A stretch of DNA of 64,000 bases from Mobula birostris (Eukaryota). The stretch spans positions 96,726,865 through 96,790,864 of the forward strand of contig NC_092377.1 in assembly GCF_030028105.1 (NCBI RefSeq), in the 5' to 3' direction. Both the position numbers and the translations under genes were made by a program. This document shows positions 5,245 through 59,290 of this stretch, piece after piece. The first letter of the stretch is position 1. Every line of letters starts with the position of its first letter. The notes under the pieces were generated by a model, which was not told the DNA's origin, did not search any database, and saw only the letters and a list, made by a program, of their open reading frames with translations.

Positions 5245-6030
5245 CCACAGAAAGGATCTCAACCCAAAACACTGACTGTCTATTTCCCCTCCGCAGACGC
5301 TGCCTGACCCACTGATCCCCTCCACAGATGCTGCCTGACCCACTGATTCTCTCCGCAGACGCTGCCTGACCCACTGATCCTCTCCGCAGACACTGCCTGA
5401 CACGCTGAGTTCCTCCACAGACGCTGCCTGACCAACTGATCCTCTCCACAGACGCTGCCTGACCCACTGATCCTCTCCACAGACACTGCCTGACCCACTG
5501 ATCCCCTCCACAAACGCTGTCTGACCCACTGATTCTCTCCGCAGACACTGCCTGACCCACTGATTCTCTTCACAGACGCTGCCTGACCCACTGATTCTCT
5601 TCACAGATGCTGCCTGACCCACTAATTCTCTCCACAGACGCTGCCTGACACGTTGAGTTCCTCCACAGACGCTGCCTGACCCACTGATCCTCTCCACAGA
5701 CGCTGCCTGACCCACTGATCCCCTCCACAGACGCTGCCTGACCCACTGATCCCCTCCACAGACGCTGCCTGACCCACTGATCCTCTCCACAGACGCTGCC
5801 TGACCCACTGATTCCCTCCACAGACGCTGCCTGACACGTTGTTCCTCCACAGATGCTGCCTGACACGCTGAGTTCCTCCACAGACGCTGCCTGACACGCT
5901 GAGTTCCTCCACAGACGCTGCCTGACACGCTGATTCCCTCCATAGACGCTGCCTGGCACGCTGAGTTTTTCAAACAGCTTGTTTTTTTGTCACCTTGCTC
6001 CAGATTCCACACCTGCAGTCTCTCCTGTCT
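5245..6030 (+). repeat. 31-bp minisatellite (~22 copies, ~5293-5968) expanded inside a degenerate Penelope-type terminal repeat
   Basis: The unit cagacgctgcctgacccactgatcctctcca (variant ...gacacgctgagttcctcca) repeats with period 31. The flanks match the pLTR family (aaggatctcaacccaaaacactgactg... and ...ccagattccacacctgcagtctct). Confidence 0.9.
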
Positions 6031-9660: not shown

Positions 9661-10220
9661 TGTAACGCCCTGCAGAAGGTTTCACTTGTAAGGTAATAGC
9701 TGTTCTGTAGCAGCAGTGTTTGGGTTATGACTAGAGATAATGGGGGCTTTGGAATGTGTGCCATACAATGAAGGGAGTGGTTTTTTTCTTGTGTGCCTGA
9801 CAGCAAATTGTTCAATGTCTTTTGTTCGGCGGAAGATGGAGAGAGAAGATGCCAGAATGGAGAGATCGCAGACTGCAGGACGTAGGGGACTTGGAATGTG
9901 GTCAGGAGTCAATGACACCCAGGGGAAATCGACGGAGAACAAATGGATGGAAAGTTGTGAGCTCCAACATGCATATTAGATTGTTTCATTAAAATGGGCC
10001 CTTTTCTTTTTGTTTTCTTTACTAACCCTATAGTCAAATTATGAATTATAAAGCTCAATTGTTTGATTGCATATGGTGTACTGTTTGTTATTTCATGGTG
10101 CTGATTTGTAACAGGGGAACACATCACGCAGCATCCACCCAAACAAGATTTCTCAAGTTTGGCCGGGCCGGAGACCGTCTTCCCCTAGACTAACACCACT
10201 GGTCGAACTTGAGGGTTACA
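9661..10220 (+). repeat. 5' LTR (560 bp)
   Basis: TG...CA termini with the short inverted ends TGTAAC/GTTACA. It aligns to 16078-16639. Confidence 0.95.
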
Positions 10221-10224
10221 ATTG

Positions 10225-10242
10225 TGGGAGCTCGTTCGGGAT
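10225..10242 (+). promoter_or_regulatory. Primer binding site complementary to tRNA-Pro
   Basis: TGGGAGCTCGTTCGGGAT matches the canonical Pro PBS TGGGGGCTCGTCCGGGAT at 16 of 18 positions, 4 nt after the LTR. Confidence 0.85.
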
Positions 10243-10289
10243 TGATTCTGTTGGATGCTGTATGATTGCCCTGAGCGTTGAACCAGTGG

Positions 10290-11600
10290 GTTGGGTGTTT
10301 AAGTCTGTGCTTGTATTGATGCTGCCGGGGTGGAATGGTGGTGTTCATTCACGGGGGTTACCGGTAACTAATCCATGCATGTTGAGTGGGGTAGATATTC
10401 GTGCTCCAGATGAATTGTTAATTCGCCTGTTAAGTATTGTTAAAGTTACGATTGTGGGGTGGAGGTTTGATAAAATGGTGGGCACAGACCTTGTTTTACT
10501 GCAGACTAGCGCTGATGTAACGGCAGTGGGGCTGCCCGGTACTATTGGTGCCCCAGGCGAGGAGGAAAATGTAGCGGCACGGGGGCGAATCACAAGTTGA
10601 GTTTCCTGTAGCTGGGGCGGAGGCTTCAAAGGCAGGGCTCTCTTGTTTCTGAGGAGTGAGGGGAAGGAGTGGTCAGATTTGGACTGTCTAATTAGCCCCC
10701 GTCCCCCAGGGAAGAGTGAGAATTCTGAGATAGTATCCGCCCTTACCTCTCTGGCAAATAAATGGAAAAATGCCCAGGTCCAAAGTTCCAGCTGTGGTAG
10801 GCTCTGCCTATTCTCTGGAAAAACACCTACCCCTAAAGGGGAAGAGGAGTATGAGACTTGGGCGGAGCGGATCTCTCAGTTGTTAGATGACCTCTCAGAT
10901 GTCAGCTGCCGATTACATGGGAGCACTGGAAAATGCATTTGGCATGAAAGGAAGCCCAATGGAACTCATGGTGGGATTTCAAAACATGCGTCAAGAGAAG
11001 GGGGAGAAGCTTTCTGCCTGCGTCTTTCGGCTAGAGAGGCAGCTAAATTGCTTGTGGCACAGAGGGGCCATTCAGGCGGCTGAGGTGGATCAGTTAAGGA
11101 TGGACCAGGGTAAAGGGTGCCCAGTCCCAGGCTGTGCTCGCTTGGGGTCTCCGACTGTCTCATAAGATGAACACCCCGCCCCCGCCCCCGTTTGTTGAAC
11201 CGATCAGAGAAGTACGAGAAGAGAATGCGTCCGAGGCGTGGGAGGCCTCCATCAGCAGAGTACAGTCCTCGGTAGTGGTCCCCTTCGTTGATGTGACCAC
11301 AGATAGCCCAACCCGGGGAGTGGTAGAGGAGACTGTGGCAGAGTTGAGAACTGAGATGTCCCAGTCGTTATCAAGAGGTGTGACCCCCCCCCCCCATATG
11401 ATGGAGCTGATAAGGACATGGATCCTTTAAGGGGATGGACCATGCAGAGGGCTGCTAGCAGCCGGGGTCACGCAAGAAGGGGAGCGGCCAGTACTGTCTG
11501 TTATAACTATGGTGAAGAGGGACACTTCAGACGGGAGTGTGAATGACAGGAATCCCCTCAGAAAGTGAGCCCCCTGATATCTAAGCAGATAGAGTTGTTG
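10290..11600 (+). pseudogene. Disrupted gag, PNMA/Ma-antigen-like capsid with a degenerate zinc knuckle
   Basis: The ORF pieces include LCLFSGKTPTPKGEEEYETW and ALENAFG...FQNMRQEKGEKLSACVFRLE. The knuckle CYNYGEEGHFRREC (second Cys replaced by Tyr) lies at ~11498-11540. There are multiple frameshifts. Confidence 0.85.
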
Positions 11601-11619
11601 GGAAAACTTAAGAAAGACC

Positions 11620-14600
11620 CATTGAGGGGATGGCCTGGTGTATCTGGGGGGCAGGGGGGAGAGACACATTCCCAGTAATATATCAAGGAACATCCTAAAG
11701 CAAAGAACCTTATTCCTGAAGGCCTAGTGGGGCCAAGCTCCAGTGTATTGCTACGGATAGAGGGTATTTATGCTAGAGCCATACTTGACACAGGGTCACT
11801 GGTCACTGTGCTGTACCATTCATTTTACAACCAGTATTTGATGCATTTACCGTTGACGCCATTTAGTGCACTGGAGATCTAGGGAACTGGGGTCTTAATG
11901 CGGGTGACTATCCTTATGATGTTTATTTGTCATTGAAGCTGGAGTTCTCGGACGCCGATGTGGGAGTGGCTGAGATCCTGGACGCATTAGTGCTGGTTTA
12001 TCTGGATCCCATTGAGACAGGCAGCATTTCAATTCATGTGGGGACCAACACTCCTCTTGTGAGGAGGCTCATGGGGGCCTGCAAGGAGAAAGCTGGAGAG
12101 AGCTTTCTGGGAACATTGTCCATGCACCCGGTGTTTCGAGCTGCTTTTGAGGAAGTGCGTGGCTGCATTGGGCCGGATACCGAATTTAAACGAGGAACTG
12201 TGTGGTTCACCCAGTACAAGCTAATCGTGTTACCGCCCGGGGAAGTAGCGAGAGTAATGGGAAACCCCAAATTCCCGGAGTGCCTGAGGGTGAGGCCCTC
12301 TTAGTGGATGCTCCGGAAGACCACGAGGGGGAGTCGGGATTTCCTGGTGAGGCCCGAACTGCAGAAGCCCTCGGTTGTACAGGCCAGCAGGTTTGCAGTG
12401 ATTGTCAGGAACACTATGAAGAGGGAGGCCACCTTCAAGCGGGGGATGCCCCTGGTGCATCTGTTCCCGGTGACGGTAATGTCAAGTGCCCCTGTGAGAC
12501 AAGCCAGGGAGAAACTATTGGAAAAGGGGGAAATGTTGACCGCTGAGTCATTCAACTTCAGGGACTCCCCGGTTCCTGCAGGTTGGAAGAGGAGGTTGGT
12601 AGAGAAGATGTTGAAGCTGGAAGATGTCTTTTCCATTGGCGAGTTTGATGTGAGTTGTTCCAAGAGCACTCGTCACAGTATCCGGGTGACCGAGGACACC
12701 CTGTTTAGAGAGAGGTTGCAGCGACTGGCCCCTGCAGACGTGGAAGACATACGGCAGCATTTGTTGAAGTTGAAGGAAGCTAGAATCATCACCGAGTCCC
12801 GAAGCCCCTATGCATCCCCAGTGGTAGTGGCCCAAAAGAAGAATGTGAAGGTACGGATGTGTGTGGACTATAGGACTCTGAACAGGTGCACCGTCCCTGA
12901 CCAGTACACGGTCCCGAGGATTGAAGACGTGATGGCATGTCTGAGTGAGGTGAAGTGGTTCAGTGTGCTGGACTTGAGGAGTGGATATTACCAGATCCCC
13001 ATGAGTGAGGCTGACAAAGAGAAGATGGCATTTATATGTCCCCTGGGATTTTTCCAGTTTGAAAGGATGCCCCAGGGCATCTCGGGAGCCCCTGCAACCT
13101 TCCAGCAGGTCATGGAGAGGACAGTGGGGGATATGAACTTGCTTGAGGTATTGGTGTATCTGGATGACCTCATAGAGTTTGGATCCACTTTGGAGGAACA
13201 TGAAACGAGGCTACTGAAGGTGCTGGGTTGCCTGAAAGCTGAAGGGTTAAAACTTTCCCTGGACAAGTGCCAGTTCTGCAAGATGTCTGTCAGCTATGTT
13301 GGGCACGTAGTCTCACGAAAAGGAGTAGCTATGGATCCGGCTAAGACAGAAGCAGTGACCACCTGGCCAAGGCCCCAGACTGTGAGTGCTTTGCATTCAT
13401 TCTTTGGGTTCTGTGGTTACTATCGGAGGTTCGTGAAGGACTGCGCCAAAGTGAGTCACCGCTTGAATCAGCTTCTGTGCGGTTACCCTCCCTTGGGGAA
13501 GAAAGGGAGGACAAAAGGAGAGGAGGATAAACAGTATCTTAGCCCTTTGGAGCCTTTTGGACTGAGGTGGGATGTGAATTGTGAAGATGCTTTTCAGTCG
13601 CTGAAGGAGCTGCTGACACAGGCGCCTGTGCTGGCTTTTACAGAGCCCCAGTTGCCATATGTATGCATACTGATGCCAGCCGAGAGGGCTTAGGGGGCAT
13701 CCTGTATCAGAATCAGGGCACCGAGTTGAGACCTGTTGGTTTGTCAGCTGGAGTCTGTCGCCCTCTGAGAAAAACTATCCCACGCACAAGCTGGAGTTTC
13801 TGACATTGAAATGAGCTGTGGTGGATAAGCTGAGTGACTACCTCAATGGTGTCAAGTTTGAGGTGAGGATGGACAACAACCCCCTAACTTGTATACTGAC
13901 CTCGGTGAAACTGGATGCCACAGGCTATCGATGGTTGGAGGCGTTGTCTGCCTATGATTTCAGCCTGAAGTACTGGCTGGGAAGTAGGAACACTGATGCT
14001 GATGTTTTGTCCCGACGTGTGCACTAAGGGCTGGACAGGGACAAAGAGTGGGAGAGCACCCCTGCCCCGGGGGTGAACGCCATGTGTCAGCTTGCCATCG
14101 CAGTGAAGGCAGATGGAAAGCAAGGGCAGGATCGAGTGGTAGATCAATTGGGAGTTTTTGATGACACCATTCCACAAGTTTACTGTAACCTGACCGCTCT
14201 GAAGACAAACCAGTTACTGGAATTGAGTTCTGGGGAACTGGCAACTGCTCAGTGAGATGACCCGGGCATCAGTATCATTTGGCCAGCGGTCAAAAAGCAG
14301 AGAAGACGAAACACACTGCGGTGCCTCTATTACTGAGAGAATGGCCCAAATTGGAGTTGAGGAACCAGATCCTAAACGGGGTCACGTCACCTCAGGACTG
14401 GCATCGGTGTTCCCAGCTGGTTCTGCCTGAGAAGTATCAGAGGATTGTGTCAAAGTCACTTCATGATGATTCTGGACATTTGCAGGTTGACAAGACCTAT
14501 GGATTGCTCAGAGATTGGTTCTACTGGCCCCGAATGAAACCAGAGGTCAAAGAATACTACAAGTCGTGCATTCAATTGGGCAGCTCCCTTGTCCAACTTG

Positions 14601-15651
14601 CAGAGTGCGGGTCCCCTGAACTTGGTGTGTATGGATTTCCTGTGAATAGAGCCAGATGCCAGCAACATGGCGAATGTCATAGTCATCACGGATCACTACT
14701 CTAGATATGCGCAGGCCTTACCGAGGACCAGAGGGCGTCCATGGTGGCCATAGTGTTATGGGAGAAGTATTTCATTTATTATGGCCCTCCCAGGCAGTTA
14801 CACAGTGATCAGGGACGGGATTTTGAGAGCAGACTCATCCATGAGTTACTGGGCATGCTTGGAGTCGAGAAGTCGAGGATATGCCCTATCACCCGCAGGG
14901 TGATCCCCAGCTCGAGAAGTTTAATCAGACCTTGCTAGACATGCTCAGAACCTTGGAGATCAGCAAGAAGAGCAGGTGGAGTCAATATATTGGACATCTG
15001 GTCCACAGTTACAACTGTACCCAAAATGAAGCTACCGGGTACTCGCCATACTACCTGATGTTCGGACACAAGGCAAGGTTGCCCATCGACCTTTGATTTA
15101 GGACTGGCGAGGAAGACCTACCACCGAAGACTCATCTGAAGTACGTGTCTGATATGAGAAGGGAGCTGAAAAATGCTTAAGAATTAGCTGAGGTCACACC
15201 TGCCCAGCAGAACCAAGGAAATAAGAGGAGGTATGATCAAAAGGTGAGGTTCTCCCAACTCATGCCAGGAGACAGTGTCCTCATAGGGAACTTGGGGCTA
15301 TCTGGAAAGCTTAAGTTGGCTGACCACTGGGCGGCTACGCCCTTTGTGGTGGAGAGTCAAATGCCAAATCTACCAGCTTTCAGGGTGAAACCAGAGGAGG
15401 GGAATGTGCCTGTCAAGATTCTCCATCGGAACCAGCTGCTGCCCCCAGGACAAGAGGTGCAGGTTGACCGTGACCCCGATCTGGAGCCTACACCTAGCAT
15501 GAGGACTCTGTGGCGACGCAGGGTGACTGCAGGATCAACAGCAGGAGAGATTAGGCCGGCCCCCACTCCTGAGTGGGATACTGATTCAGAGGATGAGGAA
15601 ATGGGGGTGTGGTATTTGCTGCCTTTTGCTAACTCCCCACGGATTCACTGA
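11620..15651 (+). pseudogene. Disrupted pol (protease, RT, RNase H, integrase)
   Basis: Protease AILDTGS (11778-11798). RT ORF 12308-13693 with SPYASPVVV, RMCVDYRTLN, LDLRSGYYQI, MPQGISGAPATFQ and YLDD. RNase H DNNPL. Integrase HDDSGH...FYWP...C and LHSDQGRDFES. Stops and frameshifts occur throughout. Confidence 0.93.
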
Positions 15652-16063
15652 TTGAAGAATAGATTCCCAACCCTTCTCCCACTGAGTTAGGTGAAATTGG
15701 GGATGGGGGGGCTATCTGTTGTCAGCCGGGGGTTCAACGGGACCCTGCAAGGGATGAAACGGGGCTTGGCCAAGGATAGAGAGGGGTCCAAGTTGCAGTA
15801 GGGCATGAGTGATAGACCGGGGGAGGCCTCACCAGGTAGACCAGAAGTATCCACGGTAGTATCAGAATTAGGTGAGGAGGTAAGGAGGTCTCAAAGAATC
15901 AGGAGACCACCAGATATTTAACACTATTTAACACTGGGGGAACAGAGTGTGGCCCCCACTGCTTTGGGGAGCTTTGTCATTGCCTTTTACACCTGGGTTG
16001 GACTTTGTGCTTTGCAGGAAGGGTTGGCAAATTATCTCAAAGTCATGCGGACATGACTAAATT

Positions 16064-20424: not shown

Positions 20425-20552
20425 AAACACAAGAGATTCTGCAGATGCTGGAAATCTTGGGCAGCACACGCAAAATTCTGGAGGAACTCAACAAATCAAG
20501 CAGCATCTATGGGGAGGAGTAAGCAGTCAAGGGTTTGGGCTGAGACTCTGCA
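20425..20552 (-). mobile_element. Degenerate Penelope-type terminal-repeat fragment
   Basis: aagagattctgcagatgctggaaatc...ggaggaactca...cagcatctat... belongs to the same family as the hammerhead elements, but the core is decayed. Confidence 0.65.
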
Positions 20553-21019
20553 ACATGACTCCATCAGTTTGTCAGCATCCAGCTACCCCCCCAACCAATT
20601 CCCCCACCTTTGCCCCACAGCTAGCCATCCCAGCAGCTAAGCATGGCAGAAGGCAATTGGAAGCCAGACCTTCACAGTAAGAGCCAATCATGGGCATCCA
20701 CCCCTGCCAGCCACAAGTGGGAAGGCACTTTATCGTAGCAGACTTCAGCAAAGCCAAGCTGAACAGTGCTCACCGACAGAAGAAACAGATGCTGCGGATG
20801 TAACAGTCTGTTGTCTTTGCTCATTCAATAAGATCCAATAACACCCAGAGTACTAAGGGCCTGTATGTGGAGGAATTTGTGAAATATTTCCAGGAAAATT
20901 TCCAGAATCAATATATAGAGGGCTGTATTGGGAGGGTGCAATGATAGGCCTCCTCTTAAGGAACAAGGCAGAGCAAGTAAGTGGCCACCAGGGAGCACTT
21001 TGGCTCTCATAACTGTAAT

Positions 21020-21451: not shown

Positions 21452-21921
21452 AGAGAAATCGATGTTCATGCCATCAGGTTTTCTTGAACATCCGATAATG
21501 CTTTCCCCCCTTCACCATTCCCCATCTCCTTTTCCCTCTTCCATCTTATCTCCTTGCCAGCCCATCGCCACCCTCTGATGCTTCTCCCCCTTTTCTTTCT
21601 TCCATGGCCTTCTGTCCTCTCCTATCAGATTCCCACTTCTCCAGCCCTGTATCTCTTTCACCAGATCTTTCCTTCACCTCCCCCCTCCCAGTTTCACCCT
21701 GTGTTTCTCTCTCCACTCCCCCCACCTGTTAAATCTACTCATCCTTTTTTCTCCTGCCGAAGGGACTCAGTCCAAAGCGTCAACTGCACTTTTTTCCATA
21801 GATGCTGCCTGGCCTGCTGAGTTCCTCCAGCATTTTGTGAGTGTTGCTTGGATTTCTTGCATCAGCAAATTTTCTCTTGTTTATCTGTAGAAAAGAGTAC
21901 AGTCGATGTTTCGGGCCAAAA
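21452..21921 (+). mobile_element. Penelope-like 3' end / pLTR flanked by short inverted fragments
   Basis: 21452-21480 on the minus strand reads PDGMNIDFS. A plus-strand pLTR with a decayed hammerhead (ctgccga...caaagcgtc) runs to ~21882, followed by an inverted partial copy (cagtcgatgtttcgggcc). Confidence 0.7.
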
Positions 21922-23385: not shown

Positions 23386-24463
23386 ACATATATGTCACCA
23401 TATACAACCCTGAGATTCATTTTCCGCAGGCATTCTCAATAAATCCATAATAGAATAATTACCAGAATAGAATCAATGAACGACTGCACAAATTTGAGCA
23501 TTCAACCAGTGTGCAAACCACAACAAAATGTGTAAATAGAAAATAAATAAATAATAATAGTGAATAAATAAGCCATAAATATCAAGAACATGAGATGAAG
23601 AGTCCTTAAAAGTGAGTCTTTAGGTTGTGGACCATTTCAGTGACGGGCCAGTGACAAATAAAGCTAATCTCATTAAAGCTTTTTTTTTTAACTTATTCAG
23701 TGACTGATGCTCCATAACCCATCAGGATAGAAAATTCCAAGGATTTGCTACCCTCTGAACAATTCCTCCCCTCTCAATCCTGACCCCTTATTTTGATTCT
23801 GCGACCCTTAATTCTGGATATCCCTGCCAGGGAAACATTTGCTCCACATCTACCCTATCAATGCATACAAGGATCTGTATGTTTCAATGTATTTATCTCT
23901 CACTCTTCCAAATTCTGCTTAACTTCATTTTCCAGCATGGACCTAATAGTAACGTGGCTTTCAGTGGATCTACCCTGGGCCAAACATATTGGTGCAATTT
24001 CTACAGAGGTACTGTGGAAGCCTCATAACTGGTTGCCTCAGAGTCTAATCTGGAGGGGCCAACGCACAGAATTGGAAAAAGTTGCAGAGGGCTGTAAACT
24101 CAGCTAGCTCCACTGTGGGTACTAGCCTCCCCACAATCAAGAACATCTTCAAAAAGCAATGCTTCAAGAAAGTGACATCCATCATTAAGGACCCACATCA
24201 CCTTTATTATGCTCCTTTATCATTACTATCATCGGGGGAGGAGGTACAAGAACCTGAAGACACACACTCAAAGTTTCAGGAACAGCTTCTTCCCTACCCC
24301 CCACCATCAGATTTCTGAATGGACAATGAACCGTCACAATTACTCTGCTCCCTTTTTGCACTACTCTTATTTAATTTTTTAAAGTATATATTTCTGATTA
24401 CAATTTATAGCGTAATCAGATCTTGCACTATACCGTTGCTGCAAAGCAACAATGTCAGTGATA

Positions 24464-24743
24464 CACATCAAAGTTGCTGGTGAAAGCAGCAGGCCAGGCA
24501 GCATCTCTAGGAAGAGGTGCAGTCGACGTTTCAGGCCCAGACCCTTCGTCAGGACTAACTGAAGGAAGAGTGAGTAAGGGATTTGAAAGTTGGAGGGGGA
24601 GGGGGAGATCCAAAATGATAGGAGAAGGCAGGAGGGGGAGGGATGGAGCCAAGAGCTGGACAGGTGATAGGCAAAAGGGATACGAGAGGATCATGGGACA
24701 GGAGGTCCGGGAAGAAAGACAAGGTGGGGGGGGGACCCAGAGG
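24464..24743 (-). mobile_element. Short Penelope-derived non-autonomous element (280 bp) carrying a hammerhead ribozyme
   Basis: 12-bp TSD ATGTCAGTGATA (24452-24463 / 24744-24755). Confidence 0.88.
24521..24556 (-). ncRNA. Minimal type I hammerhead ribozyme motif
   Basis: AGTC-CTGACGA-AGG(GTCTGGG)CCT-GAAA-C-GTC-GACT. Stem I is AGTC/GACT, the core is CUGANGA plus GAAA, stem II is AGG/CCT, stem III is the palindrome ACGT, and the cleavage triplet is GUC. Confidence 0.8.
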
Positions 24744-26694
24744 ATGTCAGTGATAATAAACCTGATTCTGACTGTCTCTCGAGTGGCTGGTGCATGGTTA
24801 GCTGTCTGTAGCCACAGGAAGGGACAGTACTCCTTAGAGCGGTCTGGTACCAACATTATATGTGGATTTCCTAAACATGAATCTTCCTGGATACCTGCTA
24901 TTGACCATGAGAGAAATATCTTGAAGACTGAGTAATGTGTTCTGTGTTCTAGATGGGAGCCCGAGCCCCGTTTGAATGCAGTCTGTCACTTCAGGAACTG
25001 GGCCTTCAGAACCCAGAGCTCCAGTGCACACAATTCACACAGCAACCAAAAGCAGGCTCACTGTTGAGAAAAAGTCAAGGAGATCACACAGCACTGAACC
25101 AGGCTCTGCAGCCCACTGTGTTTGTACCAACACCAAGTACCTATCTCTACTCATCCAAATTCCTAGCACCTGGCTGATAGACCTATATGCTTTGGCCTTT
25201 CAAGTGCACATGTAAATATTTAGAAGGAAAGTTCAGGGTGAGATTAAAGATTAGTTTTATGTATTGCATGTACTAAGAATGACATGGATCTCTGCTTGGC
25301 TGCATGGCTGGAATGCTGGCCAAAGATAGTCATATAGGACTGACTTGACCATGTTGTTTCTCAAAGTGATGGAGATAAGACTGTGGGATAAGACTTTAGG
25401 TTGACCTACAGCAGCCATTCCCACCATCCCCCTTAGTATCTTCAGCCTTTCTTTTGTTGCCTCACACTCAAAAGCTGCAGCTAGGGATACCAGCAGTGAC
25501 AGAACCACTGCAAGGACTTCCCAAGAGCTGAAATGGTGGAGGGCTCAATAGAAGTTGGAGATGAACAGCAGTTGTCAAATACACATTATGTCTCCAGAGA
25601 GCTCTGTGTTAGACAATGAAAGGTAGCACATGTAATGTGAGTGACCCAGCAAATGGTAACTGTAACTGTAATCAAAGTAGCTTAGGAATAATATGACCCT
25701 AAAATAATATTGGATGAGGAATGGCATAATTAGATGAGCATCTATTGCAGAAAACACATCATTGCTGCAACGTGAAATCCCAATGGATCAAACTTTCAGA
25801 GTGGCAAGATTCAAATGAAACACAACAATGTTATACCACAGGAATAATTCAACTGCACGTGCACAGCTACTTTTCAGATGTCAATTCTCAATCTTGCTAG
25901 AAGAGTTACTGAGAAACTCTGGCGTCACTTTTCCTAGTTGGCTACCCTCAGTCTGAGCCACAAAGTGAGGACTAAAGTGGGCGATGACAACAGCTGAGGG
26001 CCATTCCACGTTAGTGTAAAGTCCAAGCTGATCTGAAAGAATGAAGGAATAATAAATACAGCACCAATTTTAGGGGAAAAAATTGGGCCACCAAGCAATA
26101 AATAAAATTTAATTGTACAATTAAAATTAAGTAACATGTAATTGCAATTTTAATTGCATGGAAAAACAAATAAATTTAAATGCTGCAATAAAAATGATTT
26201 ACCTTCATAACCTCTAATGACATGATTTAAGTCTCATCAAATTCAAATCTCTCTATGGGGTTGCCCTGATCTATCAAGTCCTTCCAATCCCATTTGTACA
26301 CACAAATTTCTACATGGTCTGATTCAAGATTCTTGTCCTTTTCCTATAATGTGCTTTATTGATGAATGCATAAGATTTCTGTCAAGTAGCTTGGTTATAC
26401 TTGCTGCTAACCTTCCATAGAAATCATGTTTTTCTCTGGATAGGATTAAGGAAAGGAACAGTGTACTTCAAAGCAGGAGATAGAGGAAGAGACAGAGAAT
26501 AGGCAAGGAAATGAGATGGGGAAGAACTGCAGAGTGGGCAAGAGAGAGAAAGAGAAAACAGGACAGAAGTGGGGACGGATTTGGGGAGAGAGGTGGAAAA
26601 TATGTTGAGAAAGGAAATAGGCAATAGCTTAGGGAGAGGGAAATGAAGAATGAGAGAGGGGAGATAAATTAAGAATGGGTAAATGAAAAAAAAA

Positions 26695-37651: not shown

Positions 37652-37726
37652 CTCGGTCAGCGGTCACAATCCTTTGGTAAGGATGGACCCGCATATCGTG
37701 CCTTCGAACTTTAGTAGCCACTGCAC
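37652..37726 (-). CDS. QKI: QKI-5-specific exon (75 bp), (G)AVATKVRRHDMRVHPYQRIVTADR, containing the nuclear localisation signal
   Basis: aactag|GT GCA GTG GCT ACT AAA GTT CGA AGG CAC GAT ATG CGG GTC CAT CCT TAC CAA AGG ATT GTG ACC GCT GAC CGA G|gttagt. The peptide is identical to the mammalian QKI-5 tail. Confidence 0.97.
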
Positions 37727-38384
37727 CTAGTTAAATTACAACATTTCCAACACATGGTTAGAGGAATTTCCTAGGAAGTGATTGGTTAACATATCATTAG
37801 CATTTCAATGGCAGATCAAAGATGGATTTACTTTAGAAATTACAGCAAGATAGCAGTTAAAAAGTAGGTTAAGGCACAGCACCTTCATAAATCGAACTTT
37901 CAAGCAGAAGTTACTTAATTGAGTACAACTGTGCATGTTAATATTGCATTCCATTTCAAAAGACATAGTCTTAACCCATTGCTGCTATCCACTTACTAAA
38001 ATTCCCACTATATGAAATGAGATTACTCAGTTAGATCCAAGCACAATTAAATTTTACTAGTCATATAATCAGTGGAGTGCACCTTGCAGAGAAAAAGTTT
38101 TAATTCATAACACTGAATCAGTATTGACACCAGTTATTTTCTTAAAAATAAAATCTCTACAAATTTTTAAAAATTTGCAGCAATTGCTTGACCTAAAAAA
38201 TGCATGCTTAACTCAGAAACCACTAGCTAAAAATTGCAATGATGTATAAAGTAAATACCCTATACCAAGCAGGCAAAGAAATACACAGTGTGTGGTTCTT
38301 CTGGGATAGACGTGCCAAAAATGATAGGAAGAGCACTAGGCCAGAATTATAACTAATTGACCCAACTGGCTTCCAAATGTCTTG

Positions 38385-45060: not shown

Positions 45061-45507
45061 AACAAACATATGTATCTGCTAGGAGATCTGAAGTAAAGAG
45101 ATCACAACCATTTTGTTCCTAAGTTACATACACAGAGCCTACTTTGCAGAGCCTTTTAAGATAATCTCCCTTATTACTGCAGGAATAAACTGCTTGTTCA
45201 ATATCGCTACACCACCTCTTTTTCTACTCTCCCAGTCACATCATGGAATGATAAGTTGTCATACTTGCCTTCCTTTAACTATGTCATTGTGATAGCAACA
45301 CTGTGTAAAGCGCTAGTGAGTAGATGAGTGGTGAGATCTGGTGGGAGTTGATGGGAACATGGAAAGAAGAGGTTATAGAAAACATTACGGGGAGAATGAG
45401 AATTGATCAGCGAGCCAGCATGGATTTGATAAGCCAAAACTGCCACTTCATATGTTGTAAGGAAATATGTCAGAGCACTTGATGCAAACATAATAGACAT
45501 CCAAAAG

Positions 45508-45733
45508 AACAGGAATTCTGCAGATGCTGGAAATTCAAGCAACACACATCAAAGTTGCTGGTGAACGCAGCAGGCCAGGCAGCATCTGTAGGAAGAGGTG
45601 CAGTCGACGTTTCAGGCCGAGACCCTTCGTCAGGACTAACGAAGTCCTAACGAAGGGTCTCGGCCTGAAACGTCCACTGCACCTCTTCCTACAGATGCTG
45701 CCTGGCCTGCTGCGTTCACCAGCAACTTTGATG
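45508..45733. mobile_element. Fold-back hammerhead-bearing element (226 bp) in QKI intron 6
   Basis: 13-bp TSD AGACATCCAAAAG (45495-45507 / 45734-45746). The 91-bp inverted arms 45547-45637 and 45643-45733 have 2 mismatches and a 5-nt loop. Confidence 0.92.
45602..45637 (-). ncRNA. Minimal hammerhead ribozyme motif (intact core, on the QKI sense strand)
   Basis: AGTC-CTGACGA-AGG(GTCTCGG)CCT-GAAAC-GTC-GACT. Confidence 0.78.
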
Positions 45734-46388
45734 AGACATCCAAAAGTGTTTTCTGGATCTGTGAATGGCGTCAAGTACTTTAAAGGTCTCATGGTCTTCA
45801 CCTTCCATGACAATGTACTCATGGAAGGCAAAGACCAGGCTGAGATGCAAAATGAGTACTTCAAAGACTTCGCCAAGTAAGGAGATGCTGCTGAAGCCTG
45901 GGCAGAGGAAGACATGGTCAAAACACTGGATGGGCCACACACTGACGAACAGCAAGTATAAGAATTGTTGAAAAGCATGTAGTGTATATTTTGGTGGGAC
46001 AAATGAGAATAATAATATACACTAGAAGGCACATTGCAAGAACAGAATGATAAGTATATAAAATATGCTTAAAGTAGCAGGGCATGTAAAGAGAGTGGAC
46101 AAAATTGAAAAGAAGAACAAGAGACTCAAGAAGAATTATTATAATACACTGATTTGACAGAAATTGGAGTAGTGTCCAACTGACTGCCATGTTTTAGGAA
46201 AGTTGCAAAGACTAGAGGGTGAAAGAAGATAAGTTACAGTGATTCCAGGAGTGAGGGACTTTATTTTATATCAATACACTGGAAAATGGAAATGATCTCT
46301 TCAGTGTCATAATCATTTTGAGATTCTGCAAAGTGTTTATACAAAATGTGTGATCTCTTATTTTGAACATTCCTCATGAAGGGATCAG

Positions 46389-58669: not shown

Positions 58670-59290
58670 AAACATAGAAGCATAGGAAACCTACAGCACA
58701 TTACAAGCCCTTTGGCCCACAAAGTTGTGCCAAACATGTCCCTACCTTAGAAATTACTATGTTTACCTATAGCCCTCCATTTTTCTAAGCTCCATGTACC
58801 TATCCAAAAGACCCTATCGTTTCCGCCTCTATCACCGTTGCCAGCAGCCCATTCCATGCACTCACCACACTCTGTGTAAAAAACTTACCCCTGACATCTC
58901 CTCTGTACCTACTCTCCAGCACCTTAAACCTGTGTCCTCTTATGGCAAACAACAGGAATTCTGCAGATGCTGGAAATTCAAGCAACACACATCAAAGTTG
59001 CTGGTGAACGCAGCAGGCCAGGCAGCATCTGTAGGAAGAGGTGCAGTCGATGTTTCAGGCCTCTTATGGCAACCATTTCAGCCTTGGGAAAAAGCCTCTA
59101 ACTATCCACACGATCAATGCCTCTCATCATTTTACACACCTCTATCAGGTCACCTCTCATCCTCTGTCGCTCCAAGGAGAAAAGGCCAAGTTCACTCAAC
59201 CTGTTTTCATCAGGCATGCTCCCCAATCCAGGCAACATCCTTGTAAATCTCCTCTGCACCCTTTATATGGTTTCCACATCCTTTCTGTAG
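58670..59290 (-). mobile_element. CR1 LINE 3' end, interrupted at 58949-59059
   Basis: IRGHRFKVLESRYRGDVRGKFFTQSVVSAWNGL. The tail antisense is aacatagaagcataggaaacctacagcac. Confidence 0.85.
58949..59059 (-). mobile_element. 5'-truncated copy (111 bp) of the hammerhead element family
   Basis: 13-bp TSD CCTCTTATGGCAA (58936-58948 / 59060-59072). It is near-identical to 45508-45617 and stops inside stem II. Confidence 0.88.

Follow-up and report, generated by a model that had tools for sequence, protein, structure and literature searches.

A hairpin insertion in a QKI intron, probably a head-to-head stub of an autonomous Penelope-like retrotransposon

The window, that is, the whole 64,000-nucleotide stretch of Mobula birostris DNA that was analysed, contains part of the QKI gene on its minus strand, and one of the QKI introns harbours a short insertion that folds back on itself and bears a hammerhead ribozyme motif in each arm. 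Such a structure may be a small element that is mobilised as a hairpin, the product of a single accident, an RNA element adopted by the host gene, or what a larger element leaves behind when it integrates. The last of these is in our judgement quite probably correct: the insert would be a short stub, with its arms head-to-head, of an autonomous Penelope-like element (PLE). Two separate cDNAs were likely joined here in a single event, and the product has likely been inert from then on. The parent element, the layout of its insertions and the frequency of this layout, the independence of the junctions, the asymmetry of the arms and a hot spot of arm ends were all observed directly.

Structure of the insert and its parent element

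The insert comprises 226 bp (45508-45733) and is bounded by a target site duplication (TSD) of 13 bp, the two copies of which (45495-45507 and 45734-45746) are identical. Its inverted arms, of 91 nt each (45547-45637 and 45643-45733), lie 5 nt apart and are identical at 89/91 positions, the two mismatches being located at 45605/45675 and 45631/45649. The sequence thus confirmed the dimensions given in the initial annotation, including the perfect TSD and the 5-nt loop. The diagnostic feature of the insert, to which the initial annotation drew no attention, is an unpaired tail of 39 nt. It is present at the left end only (45508-45546, minus strand) and lies between two inferred start sites of reverse transcription; in full-length copies it leads on to the 5' part of the ORF. 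Read as element sequence, the tailed arm on the minus strand consists of 133 nt of the element's end (45508-45640), is continuous with longer copies such as the one at 24463-24745, and stops at the 5' edge of the hammerhead. It is followed on the plus strand by a 4-nt junction filler (45641-45644) and by the inverted, tailless arm of 91 nt, which bears a damaged copy of the hammerhead (45643-45679); the last 2 nt of the filler are at the same time the first of this short arm. The filler was likely templated from the arm itself, and the same four nucleotides were also found in unrelated copies of the family. The predicted fold of the minus strand has a free energy of -208.4 kcal/mol (z -27), and none of 200 shuffled sequences was as stable.

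Both outer junctions, from flank to element, are present in contigs of run X1 (organism A) and run X5 (organism B), which rules out an assembly artefact at the outer ends of the insert. The flanks of organism B differ from the window at 9 of 825 nt (~1%). None of the contigs listed crosses the central loop.

The parent element was reached by a genome search with the copy at 24463-24745, which led to copies that extend into an ORF for a reverse transcriptase (RT) and a GIY-YIG endonuclease. Open frames of 787-1014 aa were found in 10/10 long copies fetched, and the parent ORF encodes ~1,040 aa, with GIY-YIG as its C-terminal domain. In the Pfam search of partial frames, RVT_1 (E 1.6e-4) and GIY-YIG (E 2.2e-4) each scored just under the curated cut-off. 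The ten long copies have DKG, a CX4CxxC linker and the C-terminal GIY-YIG, the parent translations contain ADKGG and GVIYCxxCxxCGLLYIG, and the CKRNKCYTC upstream of GIY-YIG represents a CX2-5CxxC linker motif, which is of the Neptune/Nematis type by motif. At three loci (L219, L220 and L224) a piece of the terminal repeat (pLTR) precedes the ORF as a partial tandem and passes, by way of the 39-nt stretch, into the ORF's 5' region, which identifies this stretch as the PLE 'tail'. One of these loci (L220:1740-6523) has the textbook PLE layout, with a 1.25-kb inverted tailed copy, a 49-nt pLTR piece, the tail, the whole ORF region and a tailless pLTR. The arms of the insert are the 3' end, or pLTR, of an autonomous, endonuclease-bearing PLE, and the earlier reading as a Penelope terminal repeat with a minimal hammerhead was correct.

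The inverted-plus-tail layout of the insert is already published. The inverted PLE insertions described in passages of PMC8557442 and PMC3846280 consist of a 5'-truncated inverted copy, a one-sided tail of 30-40 bp and a TSD, and they share with the insert the head-to-head arms, the tail at one end, the single TSD, the hammerhead in the pLTR and a parent with RT and C-terminal GIY-YIG. Unlike these insertions, the insert has arms that are too short to include the ORF. The initial claim of a Penelope-like insertion with inverted partial repeats agrees with this layout and with the pairs of arms surveyed below. No paper on the present family in elasmobranchs was found in a search of non-subscription literature.

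The window contains further repeats. Two single-armed stubs of the same family, each with its own TSD, are located on the minus strand: a tailed one at 58947-59061 and the longer, tailless one at 24463-24745. A related family, which bears a hammerhead as well, is represented by older (72-78%) copies at 21752-21878 and 20436-20560; older copies of this kind also pair head-to-head in the survey blocks. A tandem array with a unit of ~31 bp and minus-strand open frames occupies 5285-5967, and the remains of an LTR retroelement, which we take from its motifs to be Gypsy-like, span 10100-15700 and include an RT/RNase H frame of 462 aa (12305-13693).

Copies, junctions and arm pairs in the genome

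With the insert as query, the best 40 genomic matches were all fold-backs. In the 30 that were fetched, the tailed end was constant, whereas the loop and the outer end of the short arm varied, and nearly all had a TSD of their own. A pattern for symmetric junctions matched 637 sites genome-wide and a control pattern none; 48 different spacers were counted by eye among the 49 sites listed. The exact junction of the insert was found in nine copies, two of which carry the G5 change described in the next section, and these nine differ in the end of the short arm, in which arm is tailed and in their subfamily alleles. Throughout the family the head-to-head layout, with one tailed arm, one tailless arm and a single TSD round both, was seen at sizes from 120 bp to >3 kb. 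The TSD measures 13-15 bp in 54/72 pairs, these being the pairs with a TSD of at least 11 bp among 80 examined.

A non-autonomous fold-back family, retrozyme or MITE-like, in which the entire hairpin is transcribed and then inserted anew, would account for the many near-identical hairpins of 220-240 bp with their own TSDs, and for the nine copies with the insert's junction. It is nevertheless a most improbable origin for the insert, given the diversity of the listed spacers, the different ends and alleles of the nine copies, the continuum of sizes up to full-length elements and the lack of tandem arrays at the insert. In addition, no one-strand A-to-G scar, as left by an edited hairpin that is written back, was detected in 80 pairs, where there were at most 2 such changes, and neither of the two arm differences in the insert is A-to-G. 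The junction search proposed at the outset therefore gave a divided result: the junction is not unique, but the copies that share it do not form a clonal mobile family. A MITE-like retrozyme moving as a hairpin unit was rejected on the variation of spacers, short-arm ends and alleles and on the autonomous RT-endonuclease parent, and the alternative of a one-off accident fell with the finding that 21/43 young insertions share the head-to-head layout.

A non-LTR retrozyme was likewise rejected, as the arms are inverted, with one motif per strand and no head-to-tail tandem units. The non-LTR retrozymes described in passages of 10.64898/2026.07.22.740005 resemble the insert in their type I hammerhead, their origin from PLE terminal repeats and their non-coding nature, but they are head-to-tail tandems with at least two ribozymes per strand, whereas the insert is head-to-head, has one on each strand and shows no sign of clonal spread. 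In Schistosoma, pairs of hammerhead motifs 100-700 bp apart on opposite strands are mentioned in passages of PMC4209133.

The frequency of the layout was determined in an unselected survey of eight blocks (1.5 Mb) at round coordinates. One block of 200 kb (G000:C12:60000001-60200000, L108-L127) consists of a 37-bp satellite with higher periods of 73 and 110 bp, which has 546 copies in the first 20 kb and recurs at the 100-kb point; it contains no Penelope copy and was excluded from the per-Mb figures, which are derived from the seven non-satellite blocks (1.3 Mb). The counts depend on the identity cut-off and the reference copy (38 clusters with 15 inverted, as against the 43 with 21 used here), as partner arms with an identity close to the cut-off are lost. 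There were 43 young insertions that include the 3' end of the element, and 21 of them are head-to-head. A tailed arm is combined with a tailless one in 20 of these 21 pairs, and the tailless arm starts 21-47 nt further in than its partner (20/21). The tailless arm is >10 nt longer in 12/21 pairs, and in 2/21 the arms overlap barely or not at all, which argues that the second arm is generally not a copy of the first. Inverted stubs amount to ~16 per Mb. Both arms end at 110-140, as in the insert, in 3/21 pairs (~2 per Mb), which suggests thousands of insert-like short stubs genome-wide, an approximate number that derives from three cases. Overall, the insert is one of hundreds to thousands of such stubs.

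Alleles were compared in 80 pairs from all sources, after L225 had been dropped as the same locus as L202. The arms of one insertion match at 190/209 diagnostic positions (permutation mean 0.60), and yet 14/77 scorable pairs have a subfamily-diagnostic mismatch between their arms, 5 of them at two sites; the background difference between arms is 82/4,676 non-CpG positions (1.75%). Most pairs thus appear to stem from the RNA of one subfamily, and some from two.

These data bear on a second explanation, snap-back or self-priming, according to which a single cDNA, or an antisense template as in passages of PMC3846280, turns back on itself at the junction and serves as the template of the second arm. 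The agreement of the alleles would be expected from it, as would the correlation of arm lengths within pairs (Spearman 0.63, n=21), although both also fit later gene conversion. The junction filler repeats the arm's own sequence, the cDNA end pairs weakly with itself (-3.0 kcal/mol), the junctions of two loci (L028 and L029) look like direct snap-back, and junction palindromes are taken as self-priming in PMC3846280. Snap-back also fits the QKI-intron copy, whose two arms carry the same subfamily alleles, so that for this copy itself an origin from two cDNAs is only likely. However, a fold-back of this kind cannot yield tailless arms that are longer than the tailed ones, arms that do not overlap, or arms of different subfamilies such as those of the five pairs mismatched at two sites, and it leaves unexplained the second arms that end near 24-42, where tailless single copies also begin. 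As a general rule it is excluded by the arm-length data of the survey, and for the insert we regard it as unlikely.

Two further observations concern the junctions. Many of the spacers listed consist of small pieces copied in rearranged form from the ends of the arms themselves, and by their signature they resemble the templated insertions of polymerase-theta end joining. An A-to-T change at position 39 was seen in 5/70 tailless arms (L003, L005, L011, L013 and L027) and in 1/79 tailed arms; this excess is probably one of ascertainment, since the five loci were picked by their likeness to the insert, whose flank has the same letters.

Arm ends, hammerhead motif and a proposed route of insertion

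When positions are counted from the tail end, 21/64 arm ends fall at 110-139, whereas the adjoining windows of 30 nt contain 4 and 3 (p 8e-6). None of the 64 falls at 93-109, round the ribozyme cut site, and run-off at that site was therefore rejected as the cause of the short arms. Symmetric junctions were counted at three places, with 637 at the hammerhead 5' edge, 96 closer to the tail and 5 ~100 nt further up; these are raw counts that are not normalised for 14-mer frequency. Single-armed copies end at the hammerhead 5' edge too, and the stop would thus belong to cDNA synthesis and not to joining. Longer templates do exist, as 30/64 arms read past position 139 and one of three young tail-to-ORF copies reaches 383, the other two beginning inside the limit (at 49 and 109).

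By consensus, the hammerhead 5' edge resembles what we take to be an initiator and also a splice acceptor. Among the listed junction sites and the further copies examined, no shared upstream exon was seen after the arm ends, and a transcript start is for this reason preferred over a splice acceptor; the pile-up of arm ends probably marks the 5' end of the RNA. The intron of Drosophila Penelope extends as far as the 5' end of helix I, as stated in passages of PMC4209133, and the start of that element was placed 46 nt above this intron, according to passages of PMC2377424. One locus (L264; G000:C18, ~49850000-49850400) comprises three pieces: a tailed arm and, in tandem with it, a tailless piece, each of which ends at 133, and then the inverted arm. 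This looks like run-off at one fixed end and subsequent re-priming.

The hammerhead of the minus strand (45601-45638), which is the QKI-sense strand, was assigned by reading its motif against the description of minimal hammerheads in passages of PMC4209133. Its core is intact, stem I has 4-5 bp, stem II 3 bp, and stem III is palindromic with a zero loop; the predicted cut lies between 45606 and 45605. Across the window, Rfam gave no match at the gathering threshold. Like the minimal hammerheads of metazoan PLEs in the same source, this putative type I ribozyme has a short stem I, no real stem III and palindromic positions 15.2-16.2; unlike them, its 3-bp stem II is without the usual bulge. On the plus strand the motif is damaged by a change of G5 to A at 45649 and by the breaking of the first stem I pair at 45675, so that both the intact sense core and the two defects of the other copy were as first described.

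The G5-to-A change was observed in 6/74 tailless arms as against 1/67 tailed arms, an excess that comes mostly from loci chosen by likeness to the insert. The change reproduces the five letters with which the long arm ends, and it was also seen close to other junctions, which suggests that it arose at joining; it is probably a junction by-product and does not reflect selection against the ribozyme. The notion of a 'self-caged' ribozyme holds in so far as the predicted fold covers the motif, but the caging is a by-product of stub formation. Since a lone minimal hammerhead gave no cleavage in vitro in the experiments reported in passages of PMC4209133, there may be little to cage.

The route of insertion that we propose starts with the element protein, which would cut the two target strands ~13-15 nt apart. 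Each target 3' end would then prime reverse transcription, in one case from the outer boundary of the tail and in the other from the inner boundary, and each cDNA would run towards the 5' end of the RNA. The usual endpoint of both would be the hammerhead 5' edge, probably the transcript start, and the two cDNA ends would be joined by microhomology with a short templated filler. Whenever both cDNAs stop at this edge, a near-perfect hairpin of 220-240 bp like the insert would result. The templates were probably not cut by the ribozyme, as both arms read through the cut site. In L1 twin priming, too, both target strands prime cDNA and an inversion is formed inside one TSD, features that the insert would share. 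The two L1 pieces come from neighbouring stretches of a single RNA and do not overlap, whereas the starts of the present arms are no more than 40 nt apart and the arms coincide over nearly their full length.

The closest parallel for such dual priming is the Poseidon element of Anolis carolinensis (PAc). In passages of PMC11167929, the Poseidon protein cuts both strands and extends them, its two internal start sites delimit the tail, uncut RNA is the main substrate and insertion has no need of ribozyme cutting; the same features are proposed for the present element, in which the tail likewise lies at the pLTR-ORF junction between two inferred RT start sites. PAc belongs to the Penelope/Poseidon clade and its ORF starts inside the hammerhead, whereas the present element has a CX4CxxC linker and an ORF that follows the tail. 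In the main text of PMC11167929, where 'inverted' refers to nothing but a blocking nucleotide, dual extension is not tied to inverted insertions, and a search of the main texts of non-subscription papers found no publication that names dual priming as the cause of inverted PLE insertions. Such junctions are ascribed to self-priming in passages of PMC3846280, whereas the arm-length and allele data of the present family favour priming from both strands.

The QKI intron and the meaning of the stubs

QKI was placed on the minus strand by a six-frame motif scan and the Quaking_NLS family, and the scan confirmed that the insert lies upstream of the alternative last exons, as had been claimed. The host intron of 17.7 kb (56340-38625) runs from the exon ending in PSGVLG to the first alternative last exon (GMAFPTKG), and we take its number, intron 6, from human QKI. 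The region 33690-56341 contains last exons that encode the GMAFPTKG and GAVATKVRR/AATGN ends, with the Quaking_NLS exon at ~37653-37727; QKI-7-type motifs had no match in the six-frame scan of the window. A second Quaking_NLS exon belongs to a QKI paralogue on another contig (L052; G000:C34:8277287-8277361).

The hairpin or its ribozyme might have been adopted as an RNA element that steers the choice of the QKI last exon, or that is edited by ADAR with a regulatory result. The intron does precede the alternative last exons, a 91-bp duplex is predicted in the pre-mRNA, and the insert is kept in a second species. On the other hand, the insert is 10.6 kb from the splice donor and 6.9 kb from the nearest acceptor, a single stub in an intron of 17.7 kb is unremarkable at the density of inverted stubs found in the survey, and the second species, with ~1% divergence in the flanks, is too close to reveal constraint. 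Run X11, the RNA origin of which is only guessed, covers 45100-45333 and family sequence and is uninformative on the QKI-intron copy. Nothing points to a role in QKI, the probability of which we put very low; the insert is probably an inert passenger of the intron and not a self-copying ribozyme element.

As one of very many stubs and without a functional sign, the single copy in the QKI intron is of little weight. The family, in turn, is a large natural sample of the integration products of Penelope-like elements, whose mechanism of integration is termed undefined in passages of PMC8557442. The asymmetry of arm lengths and the arms of mixed subfamilies provide a direct test between dual priming and self-priming. 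We lean towards the view that the stubs record PLE integration by reverse transcription on each of the cut strands, with a fixed pair of start sites and in most cases with RNA of one subfamily, sometimes with two RNAs, the pile-up of arm ends being the transcript start. If this is true, dual priming would replace self-priming as the explanation of head-to-head PLE insertions and would link the in vitro result obtained with PAc to insertions in vivo. If they are transcribed, the inverted insertions, at ~16 per Mb, would moreover supply this genome with much intronic double-stranded RNA.
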